DNA from: an uncultured Nitrososphaerota archaeon
Lineage (GTDB): Archaea; Thermoproteota; Nitrososphaeria; Nitrososphaerales; Gagatemarchaeaceae
Direction: 5' to 3'
DNA length: 64,000 nt
NCBI GenBank assembly: GCA_963718895.1
Contig: CAVRAG010000008.1
Location: 1,504,001-1,568,000 of the forward strand
Position 1 is the stretch's first letter; every line of letters starts with the position of its first letter. This document shows, one piece after another, positions 732-64,000 of this stretch. Position numbers and translations under genes: made by a program. The notes under the pieces were generated by a model. The model ran no database searches and was not told where the DNA came from. It saw only the letters and a list, made by a program, of their open reading frames with translations.

Positions 732-812
732 CTGGTAGTGATTGGCCCGGTCCGTGGATTCATCGCGCCTCCGCCGGGAATGTATCATCTAGTGGGAGCT
801 CGACAGCGTGGG

Positions 813-1385
813 TCATGAAGGGCGCTGAAGGCGGAGCCCGACGACGCCCGACTTGAACACTCTTGCTTTGATCAGCTTCAGCTCCCTTGGACTTCTCAAC
901 CCCCCGAGCAGGGTCTTTCCCCTGCCAAGGATGAACGGATGAAGGTAGACGTGATAGTCGTCAATCAGGTCGAGCTTTGTGAACGTCTGCGCAATCCCAG
1001 GACCGCCCACGATTGCCATGTTCTTACCAGGTTCTGATTTCATCCGGGAGATCTCTCGTGGTATGCTCCCCGTCACCAGAGAAGTGTTCTTCCAGTCGAC
1101 GGCTTTCAGGGTCTTGGAGAAAACGATCTTCCTAACTCGATCGGTGAACCTCGAGAAGTCTTTCTCGAACTGCGAGCTGGACGGGCTGGTAGCCAGCGGG
1201 GGCCATACCCTCTTCCACAGCTGGTAGTTCACCCGCCCGAATAGGAAGGTGTCGACCATCCTCAGCTGCTCCCACATATCTTCGTGGAGTTCCGATGCCG
1301 CTGTTTCATCTCCGACATACGGAATCCACCCCTCCGCGGCAACGCCATCGAGGCCCATCCCCATCAGAAGGATTACCTTTCTCAT
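813..1385 (-). CDS. Dihydrofolate reductase / RibD C-terminal family protein
   Basis: MRKVIL..GLDG, LFGRVNY, IVGGPGIA..LIDDY..HPFILGRGK. Confidence 0.9.
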   Translation of the reverse strand: MRKVILLMGMGLDGVAAEGWIPYVGDETAASELHEDMWEQLRMVDTFLFGRVNYQLWKRVWPPLATSPSSSQFEKDFSRFTDRVRKIVFSKTLKAVDWKNTSLVTGSIPREISRMKSEPGKNMAIVGGPGIAQTFTKLDLIDDYHVYLHPFILGRGKTLLGGLRSPRELKLIKARVFKSGVVGLRLQRPS

Positions 1386-1593
1386 GGAAATTCACCCTCC
1401 CCATTCCAGCATATAATCGGTCCGCGTCTTGAGAATCTTCCTTCGAGACATTCGGAATCGACCGGATTCTATAGCCATCCTAGGGTCCATTGCGCCTCCG
1501 CCGGGGCATTTCATCCACATCTTGGGGGCTATGGTTGGATGCATAGCGCCGCAGTAAACTTTATGTATTATTATTCGTAATATCAAAGCAGTC

Positions 1594-1821
1594 ATGAGTG
1601 GTAAACAAGTTACGGTTTCAGCCAAGATTCCGAAGAAGCTGAAGGACGAGTTGGAAAGAAAGGGTGTAAGGATGTCAGAGGCCATCAGGAACGGCTTGGA
1701 GAGGGAGCTCAAGGATGCTAAACTTAGAGAGCTGCAGTCGACGCTGAAGGAGATAGATTTTTCCAAGGTCAGTGACGAGCAGATAGTGCGCGACATAAGA
1801 GAGACAAGAGAAGAGCGGTGA
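1594..1821 (+). CDS. vapB: VapB-type antitoxin (RHH/CopG-like)
   Basis: VTVSAKIPKKLKDEL...SEAIRNGLE; directly upstream of a PIN gene. Confidence 0.8.
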   Translation: MSGKQVTVSAKIPKKLKDELERKGVRMSEAIRNGLERELKDAKLRELQSTLKEIDFSKVSDEQIVRDIRETREER

Positions 1822-1830
1822 CGGACCGAG

Positions 1831-2211
1831 TTGATCCTAGACGCAAGTTCGCTCTACATCATACTCAAACGAGGGAACCTGAAGGCGCTTGAGAACTCTG
1901 TCACCCTCGACCTGGCTTTCTATGAGGTCGGCAACGCGATGCTGAAGGAATTGAAGAGAAAGCTGATCACGCAACAATCCTTCGCGAAGGCGCTCAGCGC
2001 TCTGGTCTCGATGAATGAGATAATCACCGTCAGGAAATTTGGGGAGTTGGATGCACGTCGTGTTGCCGAGGTATCAAAGTCAACCGGCCTGACGTTCTAC
2101 GATGCTTCCTACCTGACCCTCGCTCTAATGCTCAATGAAACACTTGCAACTCACGACAAAGAGTTAGCCGATGAGTCGCGTAAGATTGGAATCAGGGTCG
2201 CTCCGGAGTAG
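1831..2211 (+). CDS. vapC: PIN-domain toxin (VapC family)
   Basis: ILDASS, YEVGNA, LTFYDASYL, LATHD. Confidence 0.9.
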   Translation: MILDASSLYIILKRGNLKALENSVTLDLAFYEVGNAMLKELKRKLITQQSFAKALSALVSMNEIITVRKFGELDARRVAEVSKSTGLTFYDASYLTLALMLNETLATHDKELADESRKIGIRVAPE

Positions 2212-2949: not shown

Positions 2950-3202
2950 GAAGGCTCGCTTCTATAAAAAGTAGGCCGACGACCGATTCAAGGATGAGCC
3001 ATGGTTAGGGTTCATTGCGCCTCCGCCGGGGCATTTCATCCATTTGGTGGATGTGGTATGGGAACTGGTTGACACTACCTGCGATCATTCTTCCAGTACC
3101 GTTTCGTTTGGCAGGAATGAATGACTTAGCCACTCCGTAGGTACCGTTGAGAATCGGTACTCTCTCATATTCGTGAGTCAGCCGTCAGGACCGCGGAGCC
3201 AA

Positions 3203-4762: not shown

Positions 4763-5012
4763 GAAGATCGTTTGGTGTCGTCCGAATTAAAAGCGCGTCG
4801 CTGCTGAGATTTCTCCATGGTTTCGAGCAGAGAGGACAATTTGTTTGTCGTGACCATGGATCAACTGAACATGTAGATCGCTGTCTGCGACCGGTCAGGG
4901 TTTGGTATCTCTAACGAGACTCGTTGGTTCATTGCGTCTCCGCCGGGGCATTTCAGCGTCAGTTTTCGGACGTTGCAAGCTGCGCTTTGTCCCGGATTGG
5001 TCGGCCGTTCAA

Positions 5013-6065: not shown

Positions 6066-6141
6066 TGGCAGAGCCTCTAGGCTTGTTTGATTGAGGATGC
6101 CGTAAAAAGGCATGCCATGTATAGGGTTCATTGCGCCTTCT

Positions 6142-6633
6142 TCAAAGTTCTGTGGGGAGGCCCTTGTTCTTCGCGATTGAGAGCTTTCTGGTGTCCCATG
6201 AGAAGCTCGAGTTGGGTCTGACCACTATGGTAATGTCGTCTCTCGAGAAGTACGACCTCACCTTCGGATCACTCAGGGTCTCCTTCCCGAGATACTTCTC
6301 GTGGATGCGATGATTGAACTCCAAAGACTTGCGCGGCGAGAGGAAAGAGGCCTCTCCCCTCAACTGGACGCCCCAGACATGGAGACTCTGAACTGCGCTG
6401 TCGAGCAGGACCGCAACCCGTGGGTCGGCCCTTATGTTCTTCACCTTGACTGTGTCCTTGTTCGTGCAGATGTACATCCTGCCCTTCTCCCAGATGAACC
6501 AGACAGGCGTTACCTGTGGGAATCCGTCCCTTCCTTTGGTGGCGAGTCTTGCGATGAGCCGCTTGCCGAGATACGCTTCAATCCACTTCTTGGTCTTCGT
6601 CACTTCAGCCGAAGCAGATTTTCCCGTCGACAT
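6142..6633 (-). CDS. Pyridoxamine 5'-phosphate oxidase-like (PPOX/F420-dependent) protein
   Basis: ARLATKGRDGFPQVTPVWF, KVKNIRADPRVAV. Confidence 0.85.
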   Translation of the reverse strand: MSTGKSASAEVTKTKKWIEAYLGKRLIARLATKGRDGFPQVTPVWFIWEKGRMYICTNKDTVKVKNIRADPRVAVLLDSAVQSLHVWGVQLRGEASFLSPRKSLEFNHRIHEKYLGKETLSDPKVRSYFSRDDITIVVRPNSSFSWDTRKLSIAKNKGLPTEL

Positions 6634-6782
6634 GGTGTATGCAAGACGCTCGGCGACAGGAGTTAATTTACTCTCTGTGAACAACTGGAGGGAGCCGGAA
6701 CCACGCGCGAATCATGTGCCAAGATGGAAAACCGCTGGCGTGTATAGGGTTCATTGCGCCTCCGCCAGGGCTGCCGTGACCT

Positions 6783-7592
6783 CTACGGATTCAGACCTCT
6801 GACAGCCCATGCTCTCGCAGCCAGTTGAATCTCTCCCTTCGGGCCGGTTGGCAGTTCTGCAATCAGCTTCGCCCGCAACCTTTCCCTGTTCGCCTCGTTG
6901 AGCGACGTTATGTATTCGCCTGCAGGACCCTGGCCCCCGAGGAAGGGATTCCAGTAGTCAGCGAAATCTTGAAAGCGCATCTCTATCCCGATGGGACCGA
7001 CCTCTACGTCGGAGAGTCCGGCATCCTCGAACAATCTCCTCAGCCGATCTGGACGACAGAGAGGAAAGCGCTCGCCTTGGTCCAGATGCCGGGCGGCCGG
7101 GTCAAGAGCCGAGGCCGAGTCCCAGAACGAACGCAGCATCTTCATCCCGTCCGAGTAGTCCCATACGCAAACAGAGACGACTCCGCCTCGCCTGGCCACG
7201 CGGCGCATCTCCTGCAGCGCTCTCGCCGGGTCGGGGATGAAATTCAGGACGAATTCAGAGAGCACCCCGTCGAAGCTTTCGTCGGGGAAGGGCAGAGCCA
7301 TCGCATCGCCGACGCGGAACTCCGCCATGTGGCCGTAATTAGCGAGTCTTGAATGGGAGTACTCGATGAAGGCGGGGGAGGGGTCAACGGCCGTCACCCG
7401 TCCGGCTCCTGACGCCAGGACCGCCTCGGTCAGCGCTCCCGTGCCGCAACCGACATCGAGGACCCGGGCATCCGTCGGAACCCGCGCCCAGTCGAGGAAC
7501 TTGGGAGCGAGCAGCTGGGACCACCTGCCCATGAACGCCTGATAGGCTTCGCCGTCTTCCCAAGCAGTCAGGCCACTCTCACGAGTGGACAT
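6783..7592 (-). CDS. Class I SAM-dependent methyltransferase
   Basis: VLDVGCGTG, GDAMALPFPDESFD. Confidence 0.9.
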   Translation of the reverse strand: MSTRESGLTAWEDGEAYQAFMGRWSQLLAPKFLDWARVPTDARVLDVGCGTGALTEAVLASGAGRVTAVDPSPAFIEYSHSRLANYGHMAEFRVGDAMALPFPDESFDGVLSEFVLNFIPDPARALQEMRRVARRGGVVSVCVWDYSDGMKMLRSFWDSASALDPAARHLDQGERFPLCRPDRLRRLFEDAGLSDVEVGPIGIEMRFQDFADYWNPFLGGQGPAGEYITSLNEANRERLRAKLIAELPTGPKGEIQLAARAWAVRGLNP

Positions 7593-7619: not shown

Positions 7620-8273
7620 TCATACTGGTTCGGGCCAAAGGAGCTCGTTTCCTCGGGAGGGGTTCGTCGCGCCTCCGCCAGGGAAGATCGACCCGTGCGC
7701 CAGACAGTTCTCGTTGTAGTAGCATACATAGGTGGTGACGTGCCCTGATGAGATGTCAAAGGTCACGTAGATGCTGGCAATGGGCGACGTCGAGACCGAC
7801 AGGCTGTAGTTGAAACCCGCATGGCTGACGACCAAATCGTAGTATCCGAAATCGCCGTCGAGCATGCTCGCCCATCCGCTCGAGTTAGTTGTGACAGGCG
7901 GCAGATTTGAGACCTGCAGGTAGTCGTTACAGTATCCTTGCGCCTGGCCGCTCACCCTAGCGCCCGGGACAGGAGTCGTCCCGTTCACCACGTGAATTAC
8001 CGCTCCGATGGTTGGGCCGGAGACGGTACACTGGACGTTCGTGTACACGGTATTCGTGAACGTCTGCGTTGCCACTGTTTTGATGGAGGTTACAGTCGTC
8101 GTTGTGGTCACAGTCTCCGCGGACACTGTGTTGGTGGTTCCCTGTCCCGAAGTCAGTGTCACGGTCTTGGTCTCTTGCCCAATGGCGAAGAACAGGCTCG
8201 CGGATATTAGCACCCCGGCTATGACGATTGCTGAAGCAATCGCAAAGTAGCTCCGGTTAGCCTGGCCGCTCAA
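7620..8273 (-). CDS. Membrane-anchored Thr-rich surface protein (paralog family A); 3' end reads through a repeat copy
   Basis: N-terminal TM shared with 5013..6011; C-terminal IFPGGGATNP is encoded by the repeat at 7660. Confidence 0.7.
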   Translation of the reverse strand: MSGQANRSYFAIASAIVIAGVLISASLFFAIGQETKTVTLTSGQGTTNTVSAETVTTTTTVTSIKTVATQTFTNTVYTNVQCTVSGPTIGAVIHVVNGTTPVPGARVSGQAQGYCNDYLQVSNLPPVTTNSSGWASMLDGDFGYYDLVVSHAGFNYSLSVSTSPIASIYVTFDISSGHVTTYVCYYNENCLAHGSIFPGGGATNPSRGNELLWPEPV

Positions 8274-8521
8274 GAGGTTGAACCTCTGCCGAAGTCGGGC
8301 GTTATCTGATTAATAGTTTTGTCCGAACGGAACCTCTAGCCGTTTGCCTAATTCAAGATGCCGTAAAGAAAGGCAGTGCCATGTATAGGGTTCATTGCGC
8401 CTCCGCTGGGGCATATTCGGTCGACGAATGATTCGAATTGCACTTCAAGGTGCTTCTGAGCGCTGGCACGTCTGTTCAAATCCGCAAGTGGATAAATATC
8501 TTCGAACCTTGATTAGGGCCC

Positions 8522-9031: not shown

Positions 9032-9180
9032 ACAATTGAATTCCTCGGCAATGGTCATTGAGAACGAATACGATGTGTAGGGTTCATTGCGCCTGGAGTT
9101 GACAGTCCCAGTTGGAATCAAGCTTGGATGAGATGGTAAGTATCCGACGCCCGCACACTAGGTCGAAGACACAATCTCTG

Positions 9181-9663: not shown

Positions 9664-10006
9664 GCTGTGTTGTCCCCATAGGTGGCACTTGTGAGGATTG
9701 GGAGACGGGGAAGTTCATCGAAGGAATGGTTTCGAGAATAAATCCTGAGACAGTGCCTACGGTTGCTCGGAACTCTTTTCTCGGGTCCAATATGAACTTG
9801 CCAGATTCCCAAGGTCGACTCTGATCTCGTCTGTCGTTCTCTGCTAAGGCTTGAAGTACTCGAATGTTGTCGTCCATAGCTTGCGAAGACAGTCTCTCTA
9901 TTTCCTCAAGCGGAATGTTGTCTTCAGTCAAGGCAGAACACTCGTCTGTGGTTCTGGACGGGAACTTAAGCATTATGCATGATTCATCGACCCATATGCA
10001 GTTCAA
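9650..10006 (-). CDS. Hypothetical protein, putative Doc partner/antitoxin
   Basis: Overlaps the Doc gene end; helix DDNIRVLQALA; true start uncertain. Confidence 0.45.
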   Translation of the reverse strand: MNCIWVDESCIMLKFPSRTTDECSALTEDNIPLEEIERLSSQAMDDNIRVLQALAENDRRDQSRPWESGKFILDPRKEFRATVGTVSGFILETIPSMNFPVSQSSQVPPMGTTQRVST

Positions 10007-10385
10007 ACCAAGAAGAGAGCTCTACAAGTGATAGTCGACCCGTTGCTACGCCGCTTAGAATCGATACGGCCTCATCCGGGTCTACAAGTACCAATTTGCA
10101 CCCGTTTGCCCTCAGAAACACATCTGCGGTCTGATAGGCGGTGCGTTTGTTACCATCAACGAATGGGTGATTGGTCACCAAGCACCACAACAAGTATGCG
10201 GCAATTCTCGCTATTTGCTGTCTTTCAGAATACTCAGAATACTCGGCTTCTTGATCTCGAGCGGTTTCGATGCAGTAGTCAAGACCGCCCACATAATTGA
10301 AGCCTGGGGATTTCTCGCCCATCCGGCTCATTAACTCCCGGTGTATAGCCACGACTCCCTCCATTGTAGGGTATCGCAGAGTCAA
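9984..10385 (-). CDS. doc: Fic/Doc family toxin
   Basis: HPFVDGNKRTA motif. Confidence 0.9.
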   Translation of the reverse strand: MTLRYPTMEGVVAIHRELMSRMGEKSPGFNYVGGLDYCIETARDQEAEYSEYSERQQIARIAAYLLWCLVTNHPFVDGNKRTAYQTADVFLRANGCKLVLVDPDEAVSILSGVATGRLSLVELSSWFELHMGR

Positions 10386-10454: not shown

Positions 10455-10564
10455 TTCTAGTCGTTGATCTGTTGGATGCCGTAAAAAGGCAAGTGCCATG
10501 TATAGGGTTCATTGCGCTTCTGCCGGAGCATTTCAGCCACACGTTGGGCTGCAGTAAGCCGACC
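10455..10564 (+). repeat. Near-complete copy of the cassette-boundary element
   Basis: GATGCCGTAAAAAGGCAAGTGCCATGTATAGGGTTCATTGCGCTTCTGCCGGAGCATTTCAGCCACACGTTGGGCTGCAGTAAGCCGACC. Confidence 0.9.
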
Positions 10565-11521: not shown

Positions 11522-11649
11522 TGCGGATGATGAGGGGTTCTATTCATATTAAGCCCTTCTTGAGATGGCCAAGAGAATCTGGGGGTCAATTGTGCCTCCG
11601 CCGGGGCAATTTCACGCACATTTTGGGCGGTAAGAGATTGTATGCCCCT

Positions 11650-15353: not shown

Positions 15354-15505
15354 CCCGCTCGAGCCAGGCGAGGAGGTTCATTGCGCCTCCGCCGGGGCAT
15401 TTCATCCGCCTGCTGGAGTATTGAACCTGAATCTGGAGCCCAAAGTATGACATTTGGGTCTACATTAAGGTAGACTTATATTCGGGTCCCGTGTTCACTT
15501 GATTC

Positions 15506-16124: not shown

Positions 16125-16215
16125 GTCGGACTTCGCCACGTATAGGGTTCATCGCGCCTCCGCCGGGACATTCCATCCACACGTTGGGCTATGGTAAGTC
16201 GGCCAACCGGAATCG

Positions 16216-16864: not shown

Positions 16865-16937
16865 TGCTTCGCGTTAACATTCGGCCGAGATATATCGCTT
16901 TCCAGCTTCAGAAGAGAGCTTTCGCCATGCATAGGGT

Positions 16938-17372
16938 TCATTGCGCCTCCGCCGGGGAATGCTTCGGTATGGGTATGTACACGGCTTCCCGTCCTAGGGC
17001 GTCCTTGATGGTCGAGCCGGTCGTGATGAGTATCGGTGCGGTGGCTTCTCTCGTGGCGAGGGCAAAGCAATCTGCGAGCGAAAGTTCTCTCTTCCTGACC
17101 TTCCAAACGGCCGCCTGTCTTGTGATCTGCTCGTCGGGCGCGACGACCTTAATCCTGGAGCTGCGAACCTGAAGATACCAGACCTCGGCCGTTTCGACCC
17201 CCTTCTTCTCGGCGGTCTTGCAGTAGAACTCGGCGAGGTTCACCTCGGAGACGAAGCCACGTGCCTTTCCTGAAAGGACCCTGTCAAAGTAGGGCTTCAC
17301 AGACGCCGCCCCGGCATAGTAAAGGGAAAGCACCCCCGCGTCCAGCGCGTAGCTACGCGCGCTCAGACTCAA
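16938..17372 (-). CDS. vapC: PIN-domain toxin (VapC family); stop codon lies inside a repeat core
   Basis: YALDAG, VNLAE, LSLADCFALA. Confidence 0.85.
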   Translation of the reverse strand: MSLSARSYALDAGVLSLYYAGAASVKPYFDRVLSGKARGFVSEVNLAEFYCKTAEKKGVETAEVWYLQVRSSRIKVVAPDEQITRQAAVWKVRKRELSLADCFALATREATAPILITTGSTIKDALGREAVYIPIPKHSPAEAQ

Positions 17373-17586: not shown

Positions 17587-17897
17587 GAAATCCGAGAAAG
17601 TAGCACTTGTTTAAGTGTCTTACTTCCGTAGAGTTTTACTTCTAGAGCGATTTACTTCCTGGGTTCGGTTCGAGAGGGTTCATCGTGCCTCCGCCGATTG
17701 CATCCACACATTGGGCTATAGTGAGTCGACCGGGACAGGGAGCGTTCACTAGCGAGTCGACCCTCCACGGTCCGCGATTCCGCGACTATAGCAGATTCAA
17801 GATAACAGCGAGAGGCGAGCCGAAGTTCGCATCTTTCTTCTTGAACCTGCGCGGCGAACAGATCGACGCGAGGACATGAAACCCTTAAGATAGAATC

Positions 17898-19014: not shown

Positions 19015-19196
19015 GACGGTGACGGCCGCCTGGGCTTCGCTGATAGTGTGCTTATGGAAGTGTAACATGCGCATGGTTCATCGTGCCTCCGCCGGGGCAT
19101 TTCAAACGGCTGAGCGCCGACGGAATTGGATTCCCAGATAGGTACGTTAGAACATCTCTGCGCTGGTCCTTTTTAGCGTGAATCACGTCGAAGGGT

Positions 19197-19665: not shown

Positions 19666-19748
19666 GCCCCGGTGTCTCGTTAGCGACGCGAGGGGAGGGA
19701 CTCTTCCTGAAGTATGGGGTTCATTGTGCCTCCGCTGGAGCATCAGAG

Positions 19749-20264: not shown

Positions 20265-20411
20265 GCGTGGCGGGAGGAAGAATAAAGCCTCGCGTGGGCG
20301 AGAGATTCTTGAGTGCGCTCTGTGCCTGCATGTGACGCGCCGTGCCAGGGTTCATTGCGCCTCCGCCGCGAACCCCATTCCAATGGTTTCCTGTCCGAAC
20401 GAGGTTTGAGT

Positions 20412-24296: not shown

Positions 24297-24373
24297 GATG
24301 CCGTAAGAAGGCAAGTGCCATGCACAGGGTTCATTGCGCCTCCGCCGGTCCATTTCATCCACACGATGGGCTA
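24297..24373 (+). repeat. Near-complete copy of the cassette-boundary element
   Basis: GATGCCGTAAGAAGGCAAGTGCCATGCACAGGGTTCATTGCGCCTCCGCCGGTCCATTTCATCCACACGATGGGCT. Confidence 0.9.
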
Positions 24374-24444
24374 CGGGCGACACGGGCGACGCACGCGAAC
24401 GAATCAGGCCAGCCAGACGTTCGAGTTCTTCCCTTCATGCCTGC

Positions 24445-25049: not shown

Positions 25050-25184
25050 GAAGGCTCGCTTCTATAAAAAGTAGGCCGACGACCTATTCAAGGATGAGCC
25101 ATGGTTAGGGTTCATCGTGCCTCGCCGGGGCATTTCATCCACGTCGGGCGATTGAGATACAAATGCTGATGAACAGTGCTCTTT

Positions 25185-25888: not shown

Positions 25889-26102
25889 CTGGTTCCCACT
25901 TTGATTCCCACTTTCACTACTTAAAGGTTCGTTGCGCCTCCGCCGGGGCATTTAATCCACACGTTGGGCTATAGCAAAGTCGACCGGCTGAACACGTCGC
26001 CCGAAATGCTTCCCAGTGTGCACATCACCCTCTCCTTCCGGGAGGGTAGGTGTAGTCCGAAAGGGTTAAAACGGTCTGGGCACCCAAAACAGGTGAACCT
26101 AA

Positions 26103-26767: not shown

Positions 26768-26867
26768 AGTTCGCCAGCTATAGGGTTCATTGCGCCTCCG
26801 CCGGGGCATTTCATCCACACGTTGGACTACAGTAGCAGAGACTTATCTACGTGAGCCGTGCCCGCGA

Positions 26868-43881: not shown

Positions 43882-44811
43882 TTGGCCGCAAATTTGAGCT
43901 CCATTCCAGAAAAGGATTTGCGCAAATACGACCTCAAAGAGTTTCTCAGGCTCCAAAAGATTGATACTCAAGAAAAGGGAGTCGCCTTCCTTGGACCGGC
44001 CGGAGTGGGAAAGACAACACTTCTCAGCTTAATCGATCTGTATCTTCAGCAAGAAGAAAACAAGATGAGCGAAAAGGCGACGAGTCAGATCATGGAAGGA
44101 GATCGGTTCTTCGAAGTAACCGAGGAAAACCTGAGCGAGGGGCGGTTTCCAGCCCGAACGGAGGAAAATACGACAGAGCGTCTCAAACTCCAGATTACCG
44201 TCCAAGGGTCGCGCTCTCCGGTCATGCTGTATGCAACTGACTACAGTGGCGAAATCCTAGAGTCATCAATGGAGAAGTCAACACTTGTTAAAGCGCCAGA
44301 CCCCGCATACTTTCTACTTACGAAGGTCAAGGGTCAGCTTGCCTACTTTCTGAGTGCCACCGCTCTCGCGTTTGTCATCGATCCGACTCACACCGGGCTC
44401 CAGGATCTTCCTGGAGGTGCCAAGCCGCAAAACAGTTTCATCAAAGCCGATTTCACGTACAAAGTACTTCTCCAGAAGTTGACTCAGGCGCGCACGGGGA
44501 ATGATCGCGGAACCTTGAACACCCCAGTGGCAATAGTGCTTACGAAAGTCGACACTTTCACTAGCAGAGGAGAGTCAGAAATCCTGAAGAATGGAGGACG
44601 AGATTGGGTGGAACATAACCTTCCAAAATTCAGCGGTGCTCTAACGAGCTATGTCTCGGGCAAGGTAACGTACCTTACCTCAGGATTCGAAACTGAAAGG
44701 GACCCCCAAAACCCCAATTCGCTGCTCATAAAGAGACGCGCCGGATACCCGATAGCAGTTGGCAACGGAACGGGAGGTCTTGTCTCTTGGCTGAAGGGAT
44801 TGGCGAAATGA
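43882..44811 (+). CDS. TRAFAC-class GTPase (double-GTPase-like)
   Basis: G1 GPAGVGKTT, G2 PART, G3 DYSGE, G4 TKVD. Confidence 0.8.
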   Translation: MAANLSSIPEKDLRKYDLKEFLRLQKIDTQEKGVAFLGPAGVGKTTLLSLIDLYLQQEENKMSEKATSQIMEGDRFFEVTEENLSEGRFPARTEENTTERLKLQITVQGSRSPVMLYATDYSGEILESSMEKSTLVKAPDPAYFLLTKVKGQLAYFLSATALAFVIDPTHTGLQDLPGGAKPQNSFIKADFTYKVLLQKLTQARTGNDRGTLNTPVAIVLTKVDTFTSRGESEILKNGGRDWVEHNLPKFSGALTSYVSGKVTYLTSGFETERDPQNPNSLLIKRRAGYPIAVGNGTGGLVSWLKGLAK

Positions 44812-55055: not shown

Positions 55056-55348
55056 CGATTATGGCATTCGGTACCAGGAACTTTCCCAAACAACTCTTTC
55101 CACAACTCTCTTTCTTTCTCTTCCGCCCTCTTATTGCAGCATGGTTTCCACTGCGTTTGTATTCTATTCATCGCAAAGCCTTCGCTAAGCCGCGGACGTC
55201 GTCGTCCCATCTCGTCCGATCTCAGCAACGATTCTGATTACTTGTTACGTATATAAGCGTTACAGCTATCAAGAGATTATCTTGAATTCTAGAAGAAAGT
55301 GCTCCGGAAATCCACATGGTTCATTGCGCCTCCGCCTGGAGAGTATTC

Positions 55349-56332: not shown

Positions 56333-56474
56333 ATCTGGGAAATAGACTCACGTATCGCTATTTATCAATAATGTGTAACAATGACTCTTGTGCCTCCGCC
56401 GGGGCATTTCATCCACACGTTGGGCTATCGCAAGTCGACCGGCTGAACGCGCCGCCCTCGGCAGGGTCCGACCT

Positions 56475-57128: not shown

Positions 57129-57218
57129 CGTCGCTGGTGAGATTGCCTGTGATATTGGTATTCTCGATTGCGCCTCCGCCTCGGCATTTCATCCACACAT
57201 AGCACTGGACCTGAATCT

Positions 57219-57807: not shown

Positions 57808-57920
57808 TCTAGGCTTCCTTTGATCTTAGGATGCCGTAAAATGGGCAAGTGCCATGTATAGGGTTCATTGCGCCTCCGCCGGGGCATTTCATCCACACGT
57901 TGGGCTATAGTAAGTCGACC
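57808..57920 (+). repeat. Most complete copy of the cassette-boundary element (left arm + core + right arm)
   Basis: ...GATGCCGTAAAATGGGCAAGTGCCATGTATAGGGTTCATTGCGCCTCCGCCGGGGCATTTCATCCACACGTTGGGCTATAGTAAGTCGACC. Confidence 0.9.
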
Positions 57921-58063
57921 TTTCTTGTGTGGGTTCCAGATTACCTTTCGCTCTTCGAAATCCTTGGCCCCAAAGGACCAATCTTCACAGACGCTGAAGG
58001 CCCAATCAGTTTCGAGCGGCGACCCTGGGTACCATCACGAACCCCGTGCCCGCCTCGGGCACG

Positions 58064-59200
58064 TCAGGGTTTACGTATCTCCTGAAGATCGCAATGTACT
58101 CGGGAAGTCGCAGCGCAATAGGGTCGCCGCAGCGCGTCGTTCTCGCCGGGAAACGGGTCCCCGCCCAGGGCCTTCTTCACGACATCGTAGCTGTCGAGGT
58201 TGGTGAGCCGGTGGGCTATCACGGTCCCGCAGTTGTCCCAGACGTACCTGGAGAGCAAGGTCGGCATCTGGTCGACGATGATGAACCCCCAGCCGTATCT
58301 TCTGGCCTCAGCTATCGCGAGCTCGAGCAAGGTCCTGTCTCCCCTCTGCTGCGGGGGCCTCTCCTCGCTGAGATACCTGTGGGCCTCCTCGACCACGATC
58401 AGCCGCGTGAGCTGCTCAGGGGGCAACTCCCGGTTGAAGGCCCGGGTCTTGTCGTGCTGCCAGAGCTGCGCCAGCATCATCTCGGCCAAGAACCGCTGGT
58501 CCCTCAGCGAATCGACCTGCCCTATCTCGTAGACTGTGACCCTCTCTTCCATCCCCGCGAAGTCAAGGGCCAGCTCCGAGTTGAGCGAGGACCCGACCGC
58601 GCCCATGTTTATGATGTGCAGCCTCGACTCGAGAGCGCGCTGGCTGTTCTGCTCCTTGCTGCTTCCCGCCCTGAACTGCGCTACGGCGCCCTCGAGCTCG
58701 CGGAGGGTGGGGCTCGTCCTCAACTCTCCCCGGAGCGAGCAGAGGCAGTCCAGCAAGATGCGCCTCGATGGCTCGGACAACCCGTACGCCCTCGTGAAGA
58801 CGTCTGTGAAGGCCCTGTCCCACGGGTCGGCCATAGAACCCGGGGGAGGGATCAGCGGATTGAACCTGATGGTGGGCTCGTCCCCCACCGCGAGGATCTG
58901 GACGTCCTCGTCCAGCAGGCCCTTCAGCTCCCTGTACTCGCGCTTCACGTCCACGATGAGGCAGGCCTTCTTCCGGTTCCTCAGCGACTGCTCTATCGCG
59001 TGGAAGGTGTGGTTCGTCTTGCCGGAGCCCGTGGCTCCCACGATGAGCGCGTGCCTCAGCAGGAGCCGGTCGGTGAAACCGAAGCGGGTGTGCCTGGCCT
59101 CGCCGAGCACGGCGAAGATCTTCTTGTGTCCGGAGTTCCGGCTCCTGACCCGCGACTTCATCAGGTCCTCGAAACCCGGTTCAGATGGGTCATCGAACAT
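58064..59200 (-). CDS. HerA/VirB4-like (DUF87) ATPase; probable 3' frameshift extends to ~58006
   Basis: HALIVGATGSGKT, IVDVKREY, IVVEEAH, EARRYG..IIVDQ.P. Confidence 0.88.
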   Translation of the reverse strand: MFDDPSEPGFEDLMKSRVRSRNSGHKKIFAVLGEARHTRFGFTDRLLLRHALIVGATGSGKTNHTFHAIEQSLRNRKKACLIVDVKREYRELKGLLDEDVQILAVGDEPTIRFNPLIPPPGSMADPWDRAFTDVFTRAYGLSEPSRRILLDCLCSLRGELRTSPTLRELEGAVAQFRAGSSKEQNSQRALESRLHIINMGAVGSSLNSELALDFAGMEERVTVYEIGQVDSLRDQRFLAEMMLAQLWQHDKTRAFNRELPPEQLTRLIVVEEAHRYLSEERPPQQRGDRTLLELAIAEARRYGWGFIIVDQMPTLLSRYVWDNCGTVIAHRLTNLDSYDVVKKALGGDPFPGENDALRRPYCAATSRVHCDLQEIRKP

Positions 59201-59663
59201 CCAGGTGAGCCTCCAGCTCCTTGAGCATCCTGCAGAGTCTCGTGTACTCCGCCTGGTCGACCTTTCCCCTCTCGTAGGACATCCTCGCTCCGTCGGACGC
59301 GAGGCGGAGAGCCTCTGTCCATCCCGGGCTCTGAAGCTGCGGGGCCCTTCCAGTGAGGACGCTCTGGAAGGTGACTGAGATCGCCTCGATGAGCTTCTCG
59401 GAATACTGCGAAGCCCTGTAGGCCTGCCCCCTCTTCTCGAGCATCCCGAGGTCGACGAGCCTTGAGAGACGGAACCACGCGCCGGCCCTTCCCACCCTGA
59501 AGACGGACCTCGCGTCGGTGTTGTTCACCGGCTTGATGGTCGCGATGCTCAGCAGGTCGATGACCTTCTCGTCGGAGAGGGCGTACAGGTGTTCCCTGAA
59601 GTGCCTAATCAGCGCCAGATCCTGGGTCACCGACTTTACCCCCGTCGAGCTCAACATCTCCAC
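59190..59663 (-). CDS. Winged-helix DNA-binding protein
   Basis: AWFRLSRLVDLGMLEKRGQAY. Confidence 0.65.
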   Translation of the reverse strand: MEMLSSTGVKSVTQDLALIRHFREHLYALSDEKVIDLLSIATIKPVNNTDARSVFRVGRAGAWFRLSRLVDLGMLEKRGQAYRASQYSEKLIEAISVTFQSVLTGRAPQLQSPGWTEALRLASDGARMSYERGKVDQAEYTRLCRMLKELEAHLDVR

Positions 59664-59975
59664 CCTGCCTCCGGAAAGGAACTCTGCTTCAACTCGAATC
59701 GGCGCGGCTCCCGTCTTAAAGGAGATTCCTTACAACGCGTAAGTACAACTTGTAAGGAAAGGTTTTCTTCTCTAGCTTCAGGGGCGCCCTCACCTGCGTC
59801 TTCTGTGGTCAACCTTCCGTGGGGACGCGACCCGCTTATAGACGGTTCCGCACCTTATTGACGTACCTAAGATACGTTTCCGGGCCTACCGAGTCGGACT
59901 TTCTGAGCGGGTCAGCGGTGCTTCGAGGTATTGCAATGTTCAGGTACTGATATGAGTGTTTTTGCAATCTCGTCC

Positions 59976-60086
59976 CGTCAAAGTGGCGCGTACGACATCG
60001 TCCTCGCGACGTCAAAACGAGATTCGACGCGATGAGATGGTATGACGTCAAACCGGGATTTGACACACGTCAAATAGCATCTCGAC
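59976..60086. promoter_or_regulatory. Array of four GTCAAA-N6(8)-TTTGAC-like palindromes
   Basis: GTCAAAacgagaTTCGAC (60011), GTCAAAccgggaTTTGAC (60047), GTCAAAtagcatCTCGAC (60069), plus a weaker copy at 59977. Confidence 0.6.
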
Positions 60087-60355
60087 ATGCTCGGTTCTAA
60101 ATAGCGATCCAGACGAACCATCCACGCTCATATCGTCCCGACGTTCAAACCCCGTGTTTTTGTCTTCCTACTCTCGAATCTAACTGTCCAACTACTTGCC
60201 TTTCATCCCTCGCTTCCCCTGATCTTCTGATCTTACTGCCTGTCCTCCAACCTCGCTAATGCTCAGGCCACGTACTCCGTTTCTCCTACCAGCTCCGAAT
60301 CCATGACCTCCCAGTGCGCTCGCTACCGACGACTGAAGCTCTGATGTGATGCCCA

Positions 60356-61657
60356 ATGTACGAAGAAGATCTGCATCCATATGAAGTACCCAAACCGGGA
60401 ATTGGTACCTCATCTGACGAACGAAGGCCGCCTGGCTCTGGACCCGTCGCTTTCTTTGTCCGCAGTAGCCAGCATGGTTCCCGCACCAATGAGAGAGAAG
60501 AAGATGTACCAAGGCTTGTTGGAGGCAATAGGCCGTTTCCCCGTCTCGGAAGTCTGCCTACGAGCACCCCATATATCACGTGCCTGCGGGCTGCGAAATA
60601 CTTCGATGGCCTCGCCCTGATTGTGCCGAAGAGAGCGCTGCCAGAGCACTCCAAGAGCGACATACTCGAGATTAAGGTCGCCAGATGCGCCGAACCCGAG
60701 AAGGAGCTGTCGCTGTACGGGAGACATCAACCAGGATACAAGTGCGCGAGGCTCGATCTGAACCAGATTGAGGTAGCTTACGGCGAAGAGTTCTGGGTTA
60801 GATCGGTAGGGAAGTATCTGCCTCAGAAGTTAGCATCTGAGTACAACCTCATGAAACCGATAGGCCTAGAGAATACAGAGCTGATTCTGGACGGAAGGCC
60901 TTGCCTGAGAGTGGACGGGACTGAGGTCAGACTGGCGGTGAAGAGGTTCAGGACCTTCGAGAGCAAGGCGATATTGGACGTGGAATTTGGTAGTGGTGGA
61001 CTGATTAGGGTGATAAGAGGGTTGGAGGGTTTCAACGTAAAGACCAGGAATCACTCTCAGGTCTACTCCATGATGACAGATGGAAGGCAGGTACTGATTA
61101 CCTACAAGATGCCAGGCGAATCGATGCACACACGAGTAGTGGACTCGAGCACGGCTAGCTATAGCACAGTCAATTCAGTGCCGGAGATTGGTAGTCGCGC
61201 AGATCTACTTGCCATACCTGATTCGTTTGAAGGAAGATATGTCATAAGGTTGAATTCACGGTTCATGGTACACATGATAGCAAAGTTGGTTAGACATGGT
61301 GCGTGCAGATATGAGAAGGTGAGAGGGGACATCGGGGAAGAAATCATAGATTCCATCCTGTCACAGATTGGCGTCCCGCAACTGATAGGTCATCCCCTGG
61401 ATCCCGGGAGGGACTACGATTCAAGTCGTAAAGGACCAGATAGCTTGAGGAAGGTCCCGATTGTCCAGCTTGGCTACTTCGAATTCAAGTGGTGGAAGGA
61501 AGCCGAGAAAGCGTCCTACGAGGCACAAGTACAAGCCAGCAGGTTCCCGCGAGGGAAGAGATTCAGGGGGCAGAGAATCGGGGGCGCTTATATTGCAAAT
61601 CTCGATTGGGATATGTCAAGCCCAATGTGCTCGTTGACCGTATCGAGAGTGTGGTGA
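60356..61657 (+). CDS. Hypothetical protein with C-terminal PD-(D/E)xK nuclease-like motif; true start probably downstream
   Basis: GDIGEEI...GPD...YFEFKW. Confidence 0.6.
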   Translation: MYEEDLHPYEVPKPGIGTSSDERRPPGSGPVAFFVRSSQHGSRTNEREEDVPRLVGGNRPFPRLGSLPTSTPYITCLRAAKYFDGLALIVPKRALPEHSKSDILEIKVARCAEPEKELSLYGRHQPGYKCARLDLNQIEVAYGEEFWVRSVGKYLPQKLASEYNLMKPIGLENTELILDGRPCLRVDGTEVRLAVKRFRTFESKAILDVEFGSGGLIRVIRGLEGFNVKTRNHSQVYSMMTDGRQVLITYKMPGESMHTRVVDSSTASYSTVNSVPEIGSRADLLAIPDSFEGRYVIRLNSRFMVHMIAKLVRHGACRYEKVRGDIGEEIIDSILSQIGVPQLIGHPLDPGRDYDSSRKGPDSLRKVPIVQLGYFEFKWWKEAEKASYEAQVQASRFPRGKRFRGQRIGGAYIANLDWDMSSPMCSLTVSRVW

Positions 61658-62302
61658 ATGTCGAGTCAAGCTGATGAGGCAGAAGCGGTTCGAGAAGTAG
61701 TGTCCGGACTCACCAACGCCGAATTTGAAATCATGGACATCAAGGACCAGCATCCGGATAGCAAGATATCTCCGATTTGGTTCATGAGTTGCCGCGAAAT
61801 CACTCAGGCGAACAAGATTCCCCACGTCCAAGCCATCTGGAGAGGGAAGGGAGAAATCCGAATAGAGTCTCTGACAATAGGCAACACTTCTGATTGGATT
61901 GAGGAGAGCGGAGGGGAGGAGGCCGTCTATCCCGTCCTGGAAATGGACCTGACGAACTTCTGGGACCCCGGGTTTCGCAAGAGGTTCCTGAGGGGGTTTC
62001 CTGACCTTAAGATAAGACTTGGATGGTGTGAGGCGATTCTTGCCGATGTCTCGAAGAAACGCGGTGTCAAGCTTGAAATCCGATTCGACGGAGGAAAGGG
62101 GCTTGCGGTATTCTACATTGACGCGAAGGTGAAGGCCACCCCGGAGAAGATTGGACTGGAAATCAAGCGCGTCGAGAACGCGTTGAAGGCGCTGAAGGAA
62201 GCTTACTCGGAGGTCGCGGGAGAGGTTCGCGACGCCGAAATGGAATCCAGAGAGTTCCGCAAATGGAAGCTAAGGGCCAGAGCGGAAGCATCAAAATCCT
62301 AG
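61658..62302 (+). CDS. Hypothetical protein
   Basis: Abuts the upstream ORF; ends just before a repeat copy. Confidence 0.65.
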   Translation: MSSQADEAEAVREVVSGLTNAEFEIMDIKDQHPDSKISPIWFMSCREITQANKIPHVQAIWRGKGEIRIESLTIGNTSDWIEESGGEEAVYPVLEMDLTNFWDPGFRKRFLRGFPDLKIRLGWCEAILADVSKKRGVKLEIRFDGGKGLAVFYIDAKVKATPEKIGLEIKRVENALKALKEAYSEVAGEVRDAEMESREFRKWKLRARAEASKS

Positions 62303-62438
62303 GACATATTGTGTATGGTGTTTATCGCACCTCCGCCCGAGATAAGGGCACCTACGCTGTGGAGCGTTGGATGATTCTAGATTTCCTCAATCGAGCATCG
62401 ATCCAACTGACTTGATTCAAGTGGGCTTGCACGGCTAC

Positions 62439-63218
62439 TCACTCCCGTAGCACGCCTTGACCACGCTCTGTTAGTTCATAGTGTTTCTTAAGCAGGCCTG
62501 TTTTCTTCAGATACCCCTTCCTTACCAAGGACTCGAAGTGGGACATGTAAGGATAAACCGGCTCCTTGCGAGTCCTCCCTACGATGGCGAGAGCATCGTA
62601 TTCGTTCTCGCTTAGGTCCGAGCGTAATTTCGGCCTAGTTCCATATTGCGGTTTGGAGACACTGTCCTTGTTTTCTGATTCCATGCTGGGCTTCAGTCGC
62701 TCGGGATGGAAGCGCCCATCGGACGAATCATAGGTACGCCTAATGGCGTCCTGCGCCTCACGAGGATATCTTTCCACTTCTCGGAGTGATATCCCTCTGT
62801 TAGGAGGTCTCTCAAAACGATACTCCTCCCGGCTTGACCTTGGTGACTTGCTTGGGGGCTTGGGTATCAAGTGGGTCTCTTTGATTTTGACGACTAGCGC
62901 TTTGAAGATTTCTTCTTCGTTTTCTTCAGAATGACCCTCCCACAGAAGTACGTTCAAGTGAGAAGCGAACGTTTCAGGCATAGTGATTGGATAACTTCCC
63001 AGTTTGAGTTTGACAGCTTCGCCAAGGATTTCGCCAAGATTGCTTGTTGGTACAGCGCACTTGGCTATTATCCAATAACCCTGACCGCTTCTGTCGAAGT
63101 AATCTCTCAGACCACCTGAGACAAAATCTCTTCCGAAAACTCTAGATTCGGTCTTCCGTTCCACCGAAATTCTTACTGTCAAACCGTTGAGAGATTGAGA
63201 TTCGGATGTTACTGGCAT
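62439..63218 (-). CDS. Hypothetical protein with C-terminal winged-helix-like motif
   Basis: SLVRKGYL.....YELTERG. Confidence 0.55.
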   Translation of the reverse strand: MPVTSESQSLNGLTVRISVERKTESRVFGRDFVSGGLRDYFDRSGQGYWIIAKCAVPTSNLGEILGEAVKLKLGSYPITMPETFASHLNVLLWEGHSEENEEEIFKALVVKIKETHLIPKPPSKSPRSSREEYRFERPPNRGISLREVERYPREAQDAIRRTYDSSDGRFHPERLKPSMESENKDSVSKPQYGTRPKLRSDLSENEYDALAIVGRTRKEPVYPYMSHFESLVRKGYLKKTGLLKKHYELTERGQGVLRE

Positions 63219-63814
63219 TTGCTAAATCCCAAAATTCTACCGTATGTCAGCCGTGGTTTCGCGCTTTCGTAGGTTAGAATCTCCTGAATGAGTTTCAGTT
63301 CGTGACATAATATAGAACGCAGGGCCATTATAGACCCGAGGGCTGTATAATCGTGCAAGTTATGAATGCTTCCTTGGCAGTGACCAGAACTTCGACTTAA
63401 GTAAGAAAGACCATGTCTATGCATAGGTTCATTGCGCCTATGCTGGCGGCATTTCCCATCAGGAGGCAATCTTCTGACAAATGATTCCAAAGCCATTAGA
63501 CAGACGCGATATTTCACTTGATGGCCACGGTTCTCTCTTTCGTGCCGTTGAGCGGGTTCCACTGACTCGAATGATGCTTGGCACGTATAGCAAATGTAAT
63601 GGGCCATGTAACCTGCTCTCTTTACCAACCTACTAGGAGGTAGCGAATTCGACTCGTAGAGGCCGCTTGGGCTGTTCATGATCTCCTTCGAAACACAGGT
63701 GTGTCGCTCCGGCAGCCTATGTTCCCCGCAGAGTGCTTTCCCACAATACTTGCACTTGAAAGGGAATGCTTCCTCGGCTCCACATTGCTGACATGAAGTC
63801 ATGTAATCAGCCAT
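63209..63814 (-). CDS. AN1-type zinc-finger protein; ORF reads through a repeat copy at ~63425, so the true 3' end is uncertain
   Basis: CQQCG...PFKCKYCG...CGEHRLPERHTC; C2H2-like CYTC...H. Confidence 0.7.
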   Translation of the reverse strand: MADYMTSCQQCGAEEAFPFKCKYCGKALCGEHRLPERHTCVSKEIMNSPSGLYESNSLPPSRLVKRAGYMAHYICYTCQASFESVEPAQRHERENRGHQVKYRVCLMALESFVRRLPPDGKCRQHRRNEPMHRHGLSYLSRSSGHCQGSIHNLHDYTALGSIMALRSILCHELKLIQEILTYESAKPRLTYGRILGFSKCQ

Positions 63815-64000
63815 AGCATATGACGGCGGCTAGTACATATCGATGTCCTGACAGCTCTTTCCCCTCCACATGAGTCGCACAATCGAGTTACCGTAAGCGC
63901 TCATTGGAAGGTTCAGAAGCTCTAGCCCTTTGTCATTCTCGAGATACCGTAAGAAAAGGCATGCCATGTGTAGGGTTCATTGCGCCTCCGCCGGGGCATT

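Follow-up and report, generated by a model that had tools for sequence, protein, structure and literature searches.

The question raised by this locus is what kind of site separates its many small genes, and by which route they came to be lined up behind one another. The window, i.e. the whole stretch of 64,000 nucleotides of contig C8 that was analysed, had been described in an earlier note as an integron-like cassette array in an archaeon, built on a repeat acting as its own recombination site. The observation is confirmed and its interpretation is partly supported. The repeat duplicates the final bases of the 23S rRNA together with its 3′ trailer; what had been taken for a site of the array's own is the tail and trailer of the adjacent rRNA gene.

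The repeat and the end of the 23S rRNA gene

A search with a 26-mer of the repeat, allowing ≤3 mismatches, returned 20 matches, all on the + strand (shuffles predict 0). An nhmmer profile made from 32 good copies detects 84 copies genome-wide at E ≤ 0.01; 71 are located on contig C8, all of them '+', and 68 lie within C8:1441748-1568025. The main array comprises about 68-70 copies over 126 kb in a single orientation. By this profile the window holds 36 copies, 35 with their start inside it and one straddling base 1. The co-orientation claimed earlier holds, and the count is somewhat lower than the earlier figure of about 42.

The array starts at the exact 3′ end of the genome's single 23S gene; here the last copy and the archaeal LSU rRNA (Rfam) overlap at the 3′ end of the latter. 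Archaeal LSU and SSU rRNA were identified, so that the assignment of a co-oriented cassette array to an archaeal host stands. This host is a soil archaeon of the Nitrososphaerota (Thaumarchaeota), probably from group I.1c / Gagatemarchaeaceae. The 23S gene (C8:1568000-1572001; Rfam) begins at the right edge of the window, just outside it, with its 3′ end at window base 64000, and this edge is one end of the array; on the other side the array reaches 62 kb past the left edge, to C8:1441748.

The repeat has an invariant core (rRNA strand: CCCCGGCGGAGGCGCAATGAACCC), which forms the trailer half of the 23S processing stem and corresponds exactly to its trailer strand, bulged middle part included. 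In 6 genomes, co-folding of the leader with the trailer gives -71 to -79 kcal/mol; core and leader partner are identical in 6/6, and leader/trailer covariation is present in genome G009. Around the central core the arms are truncated independently from copy to copy, as had been noticed before. Relative to the core start, they reach to -82 on the 23S side and to +95 on the trailer side. About 12 of 83 relic copies are core-only (18-26 bp), and many relics lack part of the stem strand. The truncation points bunch sharply at the core edges, without tapering, and the nhmmer scores of array copies show no drop with distance from the 23S gene.

All sites in the window are assigned to the - strand. 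The first, 23S-proximal one is the working 23S rRNA trailer (63961-64000; nhmmer, Rfam), followed outward by the best relic copy of tail and trailer (57846-57913; 75 bits, aligned over -33 to +56, counted from the core start), a copy at 57147-57209, and one with a long 23S-side arm (56388-56433; to -51, trailer side ending at +19). The longest 23S-side arm, to -82, belongs to the copy at 25912-25977; long trailer arms are found at 34745-34776 (to +82), 31619-31649, 24311-24376 (to +95) and 8372-8418 (to +83). Two copies start inside the core at +11 (9067-9094 and 6112-6138, the latter with a long trailer arm), and one has its 23S-side arm inverted relative to all others (31024-31075). Minimal copies are located at 55307-55339 (core only, about 22 bp), 20347-20368 (22 bp), 7648-7690 and 756-791. 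Further copies lie at 33309-33343, 29457-29509, 28622-28688 (68 bits), 27564-27611, 26770-26836 (70 bits), 25092-25152, 19703-19743, 19062-19120, 17670-17722, 16918-16960, 16131-16198, 15372-15426, 11572-11636, 10489-10557, 6732-6771, 4921-4962, 2992-3051, 2222-2286 and 1475-1537, and the straddling copy (C8:1503972-1504002) ends at 1-2.

Cassettes, their cargo and their movement

About 70 accessory-gene cassettes make up the array, each consisting of a trailer-side arm, 1-2 genes and a 23S-side arm. Over 229 intervals in six related arrays, the median site spacing is 928 bp (IQR 724-1512). By crude ORF calls, 113 of these intervals contain a single ORF of ≥70 aa and 66 contain two; by the same crude calls, 309 ORFs of the six arrays run along the rRNA vs 162 opposite to it. 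The gap between a gene's stop and the next site has a median of 40 bp and is ≤30 bp in 79/176 cases. The array has a G+C content of 56.5% vs 59.9% in the rest of the genome, which may give it a foreign look.

A Pfam scan of 78 window ORFs returned PIN toxins, MazE, DUF433/DUF5615 pairs, RibD_C, PNPOx, methyltransferases, an esterase and a TIG surface protein. The cargo named in the earlier note is thereby largely recovered (RibD_C being its 'DHFR-like' gene and PNPOx its PPOX), except for DinB, which is not among the families listed; nor is any homing-endonuclease family, one of the listings giving 25 of 34 families. Examples are a PIN_2 toxin cassette (321-731, +) with a small upstream partner ORF at 46-324, a RibD_C (DHFR-like reductase) cassette (813-1385, -) with its stop codon 22 bp from the next site, a pair of DUF433 and PIN-like DUF5615 (2345-2949, -), a PNPOx-family flavoprotein whose stop abuts a site (6142-6684, -), a class I SAM methyltransferase (6783-7592, -) and a Fic/Doc protein (9984-10385, -). 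A site-free interval of 20.5 kb (34777-55306) includes large unknown proteins, a TIG-domain surface protein of 1587 aa (37305-42068, -) and a Double-GTPase (43882-44811, +). The first, 23S-proximal interval (57914-63960; 6.1 kb) holds unknowns, a HerA-like ATPase (58064-59200, -) and a zf-AN1 protein (63209-63814, -); a recombinase was not found in it.

An array at the 23S end is present in 6/6 long-contig genomes of the genus, with 70, 40, 45, 18, 52 and 10 copies and 0 in the opposite orientation. The repeat occurs in 19/22 genomes of the genus and in one other genus of the family, and was not detected in 16 genomes that represent 16 further families of the order. Among metagenome contigs, 65 of the 66 with several sites are co-oriented, and 20/120 have a 23S end beside a site.

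Relatives do not share a conserved gene order, in line with the earlier reading. Outside the rRNA genes, blastn between arrays yields mostly single shared cassettes, as blocks of about 250-1,000 bp with 65-95% identity and in shuffled order; larger blocks are one of 2.3-3.3 kb with three genes, which three genomes have in common, and a match of 2 kb in the distal flank. Two adjacent cassettes are swapped between G007 and G010. One three-gene cassette occupies slot 1, 3 or 5 in three genomes, as would be expected if insertion takes place next to the 23S gene. A near-identical cassette in a new context was not found; the best between-species match has 95.5% identity.

For cassette pairs among the alignments listed, homology begins within the left site's core and extends to where the core of the right site ends. 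One cassette that keeps just 13-15 bases of core at its right end has a different right neighbour in each of three genomes, and the break always comes directly after the remaining core stretch. A position-wise junction profile places the crossover inside the 26-base core, no finer. The 6-9 bases just past the core vary among copies of one cassette, and would fit homology exchange or gene conversion as well as an overlap region.

Possible mechanisms of cassette gain and loss

We hypothesize, with roughly an even chance of being right, that circular cassettes are inserted and excised in an integron-like manner by recombination at the core, probably through tyrosine recombinases acting in trans. 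Cassettes would travel as circles with one site each and enter by Campbell-type recombination between the site of the circle and a resident site. If the working 23S trailer serves as resident site, the processing stem would be rebuilt and older cassettes pushed outward; exit would be the reverse reaction. Within the core, the crossover may fall in the 13-base segment GCGCAATGAACCC or at its right edge. Dyad symmetry is to be expected of a simple core site for a tyrosine recombinase; on reading the sequence, none is obvious here. The least secure step is the enzyme; mobile elements would supply a tyrosine recombinase in trans, possibly from two lineages with genes just upstream of a site in several loci.

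In the first of these, a module of a tRNA, a 443-aa tyrosine recombinase, a J-domain gene and a site is shared by G012, G017 and G020 at 93-96% identity, which stops exactly at the core end, where different cassettes follow. Some arrays that do not adjoin an rRNA gene have an integrase module at their head. The tRNA site may, however, be the sole target of this integrase. In a second lineage (G000, G015 and two metagenome contigs), the site lies 0.14-1.4 kb downstream of the integrase gene in the same relative orientation. The site-linked integrases score 54-100 bits against XerA (cut-off 220) and 20-33 against IntI (cut-off 265), and by these scores would represent tyrosine-recombinase lineages other than IntI and XerA. 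The complete genome G007, with a 40-site array, has a single Phage_integrase match, adjoining a tRNA; near the other members of this lineage there is no site, and the second lineage has no homologue in G007 at E ≤ 1e-10. Near sites, integrases were found at 0/61 genome loci (442 kb) and on 3/120 metagenome contigs (464 kb), and a site is lacking at the majority of the integrase loci inspected (L104, L105, L107-L113, L121, L122). For the recombinase suggested to lie outside the window there are candidates at other loci, none of them beside the 23S-linked arrays, of which 0/6 have an integrase gene within or next to them.

This last result favours the main rival, which we regard as possible yet less probable. 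Here no dedicated recombinase exists, and host homologous recombination or gene conversion between rRNA tails inserts, loses and shuffles cassettes, perhaps triggered by a double-strand break where the 23S gene ends. It is modelled on the WHO elements of yeasts, which replace the 3′ end of FBA1 at each homing event; as far as the account of these elements goes, their clusters show that 3′-end replacement can build such arrays (PMC7282813). The varying arm lengths are what crossovers at varying points would leave, and the bases right after the core are exchanged among copies of one cassette. The working trailer is selected for rRNA processing, to which the covariation in G009 attests, and can therefore keep reseeding perfect copies. 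On the other hand, breakpoints fall at sites that share just 13-26 bases, which is very short for RadA-type recombination, and truncations that are sharp at the core edges and a site quality that does not drop away from the 23S gene also speak against host exchange, which would not explain how a new gene first acquired its flanking tails. WHO-type homing, moreover, predicts cut-resistant alleles, of which the working core, invariant across 6/6 species, gives no sign, and the Pfam families listed include no homing endonuclease to drive it.

A role at the RNA level appears improbable. By base-pairing to the 23S leader as half of a bulge-helix-bulge-type processing stem, the copies would guide the cutting or 3′-end formation of cassette transcripts, tying cassette expression to rRNA synthesis, with the DNA array as a by-product. 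The exact match of the core to the stem strand, the prevailing rRNA direction of the cassette genes and the closeness of their stops to the next site would suit it, as does circular 23S rRNA, the product of such processing, which is reported for Nitrososphaeria (PMC12918454). However, there is one leader copy, the leader-type half is absent from the arrays (0 opposite-strand copies), the stem strand is incomplete in many relics, and neither cassette shuffling nor breakpoints in the core would be explained.

Very improbable is an ordinary integron remnant, i.e. an attC cluster that lacks an integrase and has unusual sites. The consensus of the attC box is RYYYAAC, and the 23S-side arm, read from the sequence, happens to match it. 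The co-oriented array and cargo of toxin-antitoxin pairs and small enzymes are integron-like, and archaeal integrons and attC clusters are reported (PMC9668308). The inverse partner box is missing, however (1 of 11 arm matches is inverted), and the sequence is that of the 23S tail itself. The earlier claim that the site is not attC is upheld: no hairpin forms on either strand (z +0.47 to +1.80; six folds, each equalled or bettered by 136-197 of 200 shuffles), and a search of 6 genomes gave no IntI above cut-off. Least credible of all is the reading as a REP- or MITE-like repeat dispersed between genes and dense here by chance, for although a few copies are located outside the array (11 on C4 in both orientations, one each on C6 and C10, and 3 at C8:1.19-1.22 Mb), 68-70 of the 84 are in one co-oriented array, as the earlier reading implied, the repeat is neither palindromic nor folded, and the array is anchored at the 23S end in every long-contig genome.

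Comparison with known systems

Since the repeat is the 23S tail and trailer, accretion at the 3′ ends of stable-RNA genes is as close a precedent as integrons. Sedentary chromosomal integrons and integrase-less attC clusters, archaeal ones included, share with the present arrays, in the aspects covered by the source (Ghaly et al., 2022; PMC9668308), great length and co-orientation, mostly one-gene cassettes with accessory cargo rich in toxin-antitoxin pairs, a site directly behind each gene's stop, content and order that vary among close relatives, and a pattern suggesting insertion at the first site. In contrast to the folded, paired inverse boxes of attC, the site here is a linear core of 13-26 bases copied from the 23S trailer; IntI is missing, the part of 'primary site' is played by the working end of an rRNA gene, and integrases, where linked, are co-directional and of other tyrosine-recombinase lineages.

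The 'additive' flexible genomic islands of Alteromonas grow by tandem accretion at tRNA and tmRNA 3′ ends (Lopez-Perez et al., 2016; PMC4898812). In the portion of that work concerned with them, the 3′ end of a stable-RNA gene is likewise a hotspot, each insertion leaves a downstream direct repeat of part of the RNA gene, and strain-specific cassettes recur in unrelated order. The present arrays differ in their target, the 23S rRNA tail and processing stem, for which we found no paper describing such accretion, in their units (single genes of about 0.7-1.5 kb without integrases), in their size of up to 70 units and 126 kb, and in the short core retained in nearly all copies.

In yeasts of the genera Torulaspora and Lachancea, WHO elements lie behind FBA1 (Coughlan et al., 2020; PMC7282813); they resemble the arrays, in the features that the source sets out, in that repeated 3′-end replacement builds a downstream cluster with relic 3′ ends between the elements. 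Each WHO element, however, encodes the nuclease responsible for homing, and its target alleles differ in cleavability. The present arrays carry ordinary accessory genes, a nuclease that could drive homing was not found, and the core of the working trailer does not vary. Taken together, the locus is an integron-style arrangement for collecting genes, with the tail of the rRNA gene itself as a site of a different kind.

Extent of the array and identity of its repeat

The 26-mer on which the earlier note had based an integron-like array matches the window 20 times at up to three mismatches, on the plus strand only, where chance would provide no match at all. Stacking of the copies displays a conserved unit of about 60 bases, very strong in its centre and weaker towards both sides. 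With a profile derived from 32 good copies, 84 copies were found in the 3.13-Mb source genome (E ≤ 0.01). Contig C8, on which the window occupies C8:1504001–1568000, holds 71 of them in a single orientation, and 68 of these are located at C8:1441748–1568025. This array of 126 kb is twice as long as the window's share and ends at the window's right edge. The array postulated by the earlier note is real, its copies being co-oriented by 26-mer and by profile alike, whereas the number of about 42 copies in the window has to be corrected to 36. Scattering over the genome in both orientations, which the note had named as an argument against its claim, is not observed, since 68–70 of the 84 copies lie in this single co-oriented array; on the same grounds, and because the copies do not fold, REP/BIME elements and MITEs were rejected. 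Copies outside the array are found at C8:1.19–1.22 Mb (three), on contig C4 (eleven; seven and four by strand) and on contigs C6 and C10 (one each). Profile scores display no decay of sites with distance from the 23S rRNA gene.

Archaeal 23S and 16S rRNA genes, both on the minus strand, are situated directly to the right of the window, and the last repeat copy overlaps the 3′ end of this 23S gene, the sole one in the assembly. Read on the rRNA strand, the unit comprises the last ~20 bases of mature 23S rRNA, followed by the core CCCCGGCGGAGGCGCAATGAACCC and by more of the trailer. The complement of the trailer sequence is found in the spacer upstream of the 23S gene, and co-folding of leader and trailer gives a long stem in six genomes (−71 to −79 kcal/mol); in each of them, pairing between the first site and the leader is complete. 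Given the overlap with the 23S end, the complementary leader and the co-folding, the repeat is the trailer half of the 23S processing stem. The middle of the modelled stem is bulged, with GCGC flanked by unpaired bases, and looks like a bulge-helix-bulge processing motif; circular 23S rRNA, a product of such processing, has been reported for Nitrososphaeria (PMC12918454). All 83 other copies align to a reference of 23S end and trailer over 18–121 bases. Their ends vary, reaching −82 in the 23S-side arm and +95 in the trailer-side arm, and cluster at the edges of the core as well as at about +36 and +85. All six genomes share an identical core, and leader and trailer covary in one relative (G009); selection on the working trailer would keep the core invariant, whichever mechanism holds.

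The 23S gene itself (locus L008, 2000–6001; C8:1568000–1572001) measures 4002 nt against a model of 2987 positions. In five relatives it spans 3.7–6.2 kb, with insertions of variable size, presumably introns, and blastn places the extra pieces at different positions between genomes. The copy at window positions 31024–31075 is the sole one with its 23S-side arm inverted relative to the core, and may mark a past inversion between sites. A trailer-side arm of about 100 bases, extending beyond the real 23S trailer, is common to window positions 8300–8390, C8:1189450–1189520 and C8:1216100–1216190. It ends in an A/T-rich box (…ACTATTAATCA) that, judged by its sequence, resembles an archaeal promoter, and the same motif occurs inverted on C4. 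A second, smaller cluster on that contig (C4:263555–300194) comprises 10 copies in both orientations with no adjoining rRNA gene, several of them with a trailer-arm variant of their own. This cluster could be a rearranged piece of the array, or could come from a second strain in the bin, whose contamination is 5.4%.

Public contigs with several exact repeat copies are recorded as MAGs of Nitrososphaerota/Thaumarchaeota, including Candidatus Gagatemarchaeum. Many matches to the 91-base 23S end are present in 19 of the 22 genomes from this genus, as well as in one other genus of the family; there are none in one further genus of the family or in 16 genomes of 16 other families of the order. Genomes of those families could have arrays built on their own, different tails; within 20 kb downstream of 23S in four other families, the five largest repeat families listed include no trailer repeats. 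In all six genomes of the genus with long contigs, the 23S 3′ end marks the start of the array, which has 70, 40, 45, 18, 52 and 10 copies, respectively, and none in opposite orientation. For G007, a complete genome, Rfam sets the 23S end ~1.1 kb before the first site, and homology to the source genome puts the true end at the site. Metagenome contigs with the site number at least 120, holding at least 264 sites, which indicates a large cassette pool. Among the matches listed, sites are co-oriented in 65 of the 66 contigs with two or more of them, and the 23S end adjoins a site in 20 of 120 contigs. Dozens of spare rRNA tails beside the rRNA operon may hamper metagenome assembly in this region.

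Cassette content and exchange between relatives

Sites are spaced at a median of 928 bp, and 179 of 229 intervals contain one or two ORFs. By crude ORF calls in the six arrays, 309 ORFs follow the rRNA direction versus 162 against it; a gene's stop is separated from the following site by a median of 40 bp. The G+C content is 56.5% in the array versus 59.9% in the rest of the genome. This is the layout of an integron, with co-oriented short cassettes, a site after the gene and a variable order, and the co-orientation and short cassettes described in the earlier note recur in all six arrays. The cargo is typical accessory material: at least seven PIN toxins, with MazE, DUF433 and DUF5615 partners, Fic, RibD_C, PNPOx, methyltransferases, an ABC transporter, an alcohol dehydrogenase, an esterase, a TIG surface protein, a Double-GTPase and a HerA-like ATPase. 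An interval of 20.5 kb without sites (window 34777–55306) encodes a Double-GTPase, a TIG-domain surface protein of 1587 aa and several large proteins without family, and resembles a conflict or surface island acting as one "cassette".

Comparison of cassette order between relatives, as recommended in the earlier note, displays a shuffled and not a conserved order. Outside the rRNA genes, blastn among the six arrays returns mostly cassette-sized blocks of ~250–1,000 bp at 65–95% identity, the exceptions being a 2-kb match in the distal flank and one three-gene block of 2.3–3.3 kb that three genomes share. At ≥95% identity, no cassette was found in a new context, apart from one block of 95.5%. 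Two neighbouring cassettes are reversed in order between G007 and G010, and the three-gene cassette occupies slots 1, 3 and 5 in G007, G010 and G021, respectively, a pattern expected from insertion next to 23S. The three-gene block (loci L084/L085 and equivalents in these three arrays) encodes an HTH-like protein of 329–333 aa, a protein of 652–658 aa and a zinc-finger-like protein of 128–129 aa, at 80–84% identity; a DEDD-type exonuclease-like ORF adjoins it in G007.

Among the alignments listed for 11 pairs, homology of shared cassettes begins in the core of the upstream site, takes in that site's trailer-side arm and the 23S-side arm of the downstream site, and stops where the core of the latter ends. 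A cassette therefore consists of trailer arm, gene or genes, and 23S-side arm; in circular form, it would have one complete site. The right end of one cassette keeps just 13–15 core bases (GCGCAATGAACCC) in three genomes, where it is followed by three different neighbours, every break falling immediately after that stretch. The 6–9 bases after the core differ between copies of this same cassette, hence the exchange also extends into the beginning of the trailer arm. A position-wise profile of 30 left and 31 right junction pairs is consistent with a crossover in the 26-base core and is too coarse to refine it.

Candidate recombinases and modes of cassette movement

A tblastn search with the 461-aa and 398-aa tyrosine recombinases of the source genome found no integrase in the six arrays. 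The first interval contains no recombinase, and the distal flank consists of ordinary metabolic genes. Searches of the source genome gave no match to serine recombinases or Y1 transposases. Its two reverse transcriptases are both part of group II introns at C8:1.20–1.21 Mb, and none lies in the arrays. The region of these introns (C8:1203494–1209073; 584-aa reverse transcriptases, 75% identical to each other) is flanked by site copies at C8:1189520 and C8:1216189.

Two tyrosine-recombinase lineages are linked to sites, only at loci away from the 23S-linked arrays. The first forms a module in three relatives, composed of an intron-containing tRNA, a 443-aa recombinase, a J-domain membrane protein, 130 bp and a site, which is followed by 7 (G012), 2 (G017) and 3 (G020) co-oriented sites. 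The three modules are 93–96% identical, and this identity stops exactly at the last base of the core. Upstream of the tRNA, the flank is ordinary syntenic chromosome (~83% identity in G012 and G017), and the recombinase of this module may serve only the tRNA site. The J-domain gene is also ordinary cargo inside arrays (array coordinates 43961–44101 in G009 and 38486–38626 in G018; loci L080 and L046). The second lineage is represented by the 461-aa recombinase of the source genome (C8:1190962–1192347), with a site 1.4 kb downstream, and by a relative in G015 with a site 250 bp downstream; among the matches listed, two metagenome contigs have sites 140 and 700 bp downstream. The relative orientation of these sites is the same throughout. 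A 141-nt intron-containing tRNA (C8:1192303–1192443; locus L098, 7303–7443) lies between the divergent genes of the 461-aa and 398-aa tyrosine recombinases.

Most integrase loci examined have no site, and an integrase was found near sites in 0 of 61 genome loci and, among the matches listed, in 3 of 120 metagenome contigs. In the complete genome G007, the only recombinase is tRNA-linked, and the second lineage has no member. A 444-aa integrase (C8:1.339 Mb) was considered as a housekeeping enzyme and rejected, being patchy (10 of 22 genomes of the genus) and adjoining a tRNA. By itself, the tRNA resembles the site no more closely than shuffled controls do. A lead comes from locus L115 (G012:C7), in which the tRNA 3′ end together with 40 nt downstream gives a weak alignment over the full length of the site, both in one orientation, at a score of 14 versus 8.2 ± 1.5 for shuffles (reached by 3 of 1000), in a comparison chosen post hoc. 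A second copy of the tRNA 3′ end, such as would close a mobile element, was not found in ~60 kb, and a scan of the collection returned no viral contigs carrying the site.

Based on this dataset, we are confident that a fast-turning cassette array grows at the 23S tail, with spare rRNA tails as joints and an exchange point in the short core. As a whole explanation, we give an even chance to integron-like movement, in which circular cassettes would be inserted and excised at the core by a site-specific tyrosine recombinase supplied in trans. This mechanism is suggested by breakpoints that respect a core as short as 13 bases, by sharp truncation points, by an integrase module that ends exactly at the core, and by arrays at stable-RNA gene ends elsewhere, which arise that way. 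The main rival, which we regard as possible but less likely, is host homologous recombination and gene conversion between tails, maybe stimulated by breaks as in the WHO elements of yeasts (PMC7282813). This rival can do without a missing enzyme and is consistent with the blurring of the bases behind the core. Elements of the WHO type each encode an endonuclease for cutting their target gene, whose alleles differ at the cut site; here, the working core is identical in all six species. Only tentatively do we consider a self-contained and independently evolved archaeal counterpart of integrons, with recombinase lineages of its own, a site borrowed from the pre-rRNA processing stem and the 23S end as capture site. 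Such a system may express captured genes via rRNA read-through and processing of the stem.

Relation to known systems

Elements accreting at stable-RNA genes, such as tRNA/tmRNA-type and additive islands, rebuild the 3′ end of their target, leave direct repeats of it at the bounds of inserts and carry an integrase in each insert. Here, the arrays start at the 23S 3′ end in all six genomes and the 83 relic copies align to that end and its trailer; the integrase is missing from the inserts by the tblastn search of the six arrays. In agreement with the earlier note, the site does not look like an attC, whose paired inverse core boxes form a hairpin on one strand. Three copies folded on both strands as DNA gave −5 to −8 kcal/mol (z +0.47 to +1.80), i.e. 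no hairpin, and the arm motif is inverted in just 1 of 11 matches; the attC reading was rejected on these two counts. No IntI passes the TIGR02249 cut-off in six genomes: the best score in the source genome (80.5% complete) is 33.8 bits against 265, and none passes in five relatives. An Rfam scan of the window returned no match. Modules of the pdif type consist of two inverted recombinase-binding arms around a 6–8-bp spacer, alternate in orientation and use the host Xer. The sites here do not fit this description, as they are all co-oriented and no clear dyad was read in the core; XerA does not exceed its cut-off in the source genome (best 101 bits versus 220). Homing endonuclease families were absent among the results listed for the 78 ORFs of the window, many of which have no family, and for one part of which 25 of 34 families were seen.

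The host group comprises abundant acid-soil archaea that have never been cultured. We found no published description of an rRNA tail as recombination site, supplements and subscription journals being outside our coverage. The Gagatemarchaeaceae paper (PMC10640624) does not mention integron, cassette, repeat, island, 23S or toxin, and "rRNA" is absent from the main text of a survey of integrated elements in Thaumarchaeota (PMC6563490). The tail of an rRNA gene made into a recombination hotspot would tie gene capture to a sequence that the cell is not free to alter, and a capture site in an indispensable sequence would stay constant across species. The short defined site (13–26 bases) and the candidate recombinases are open to bench testing.

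The kind of system is already known, from integrons, archaeal examples included (PMC9668308), and from "additive" islands, which leave repeats of a tRNA end between their cassettes (PMC4898812). The present case comprises integrase-linked modules and arrays of up to 126 kb in Nitrososphaerota, and it would represent a second route, besides integrons, by which single accessory genes are stockpiled and reshuffled.
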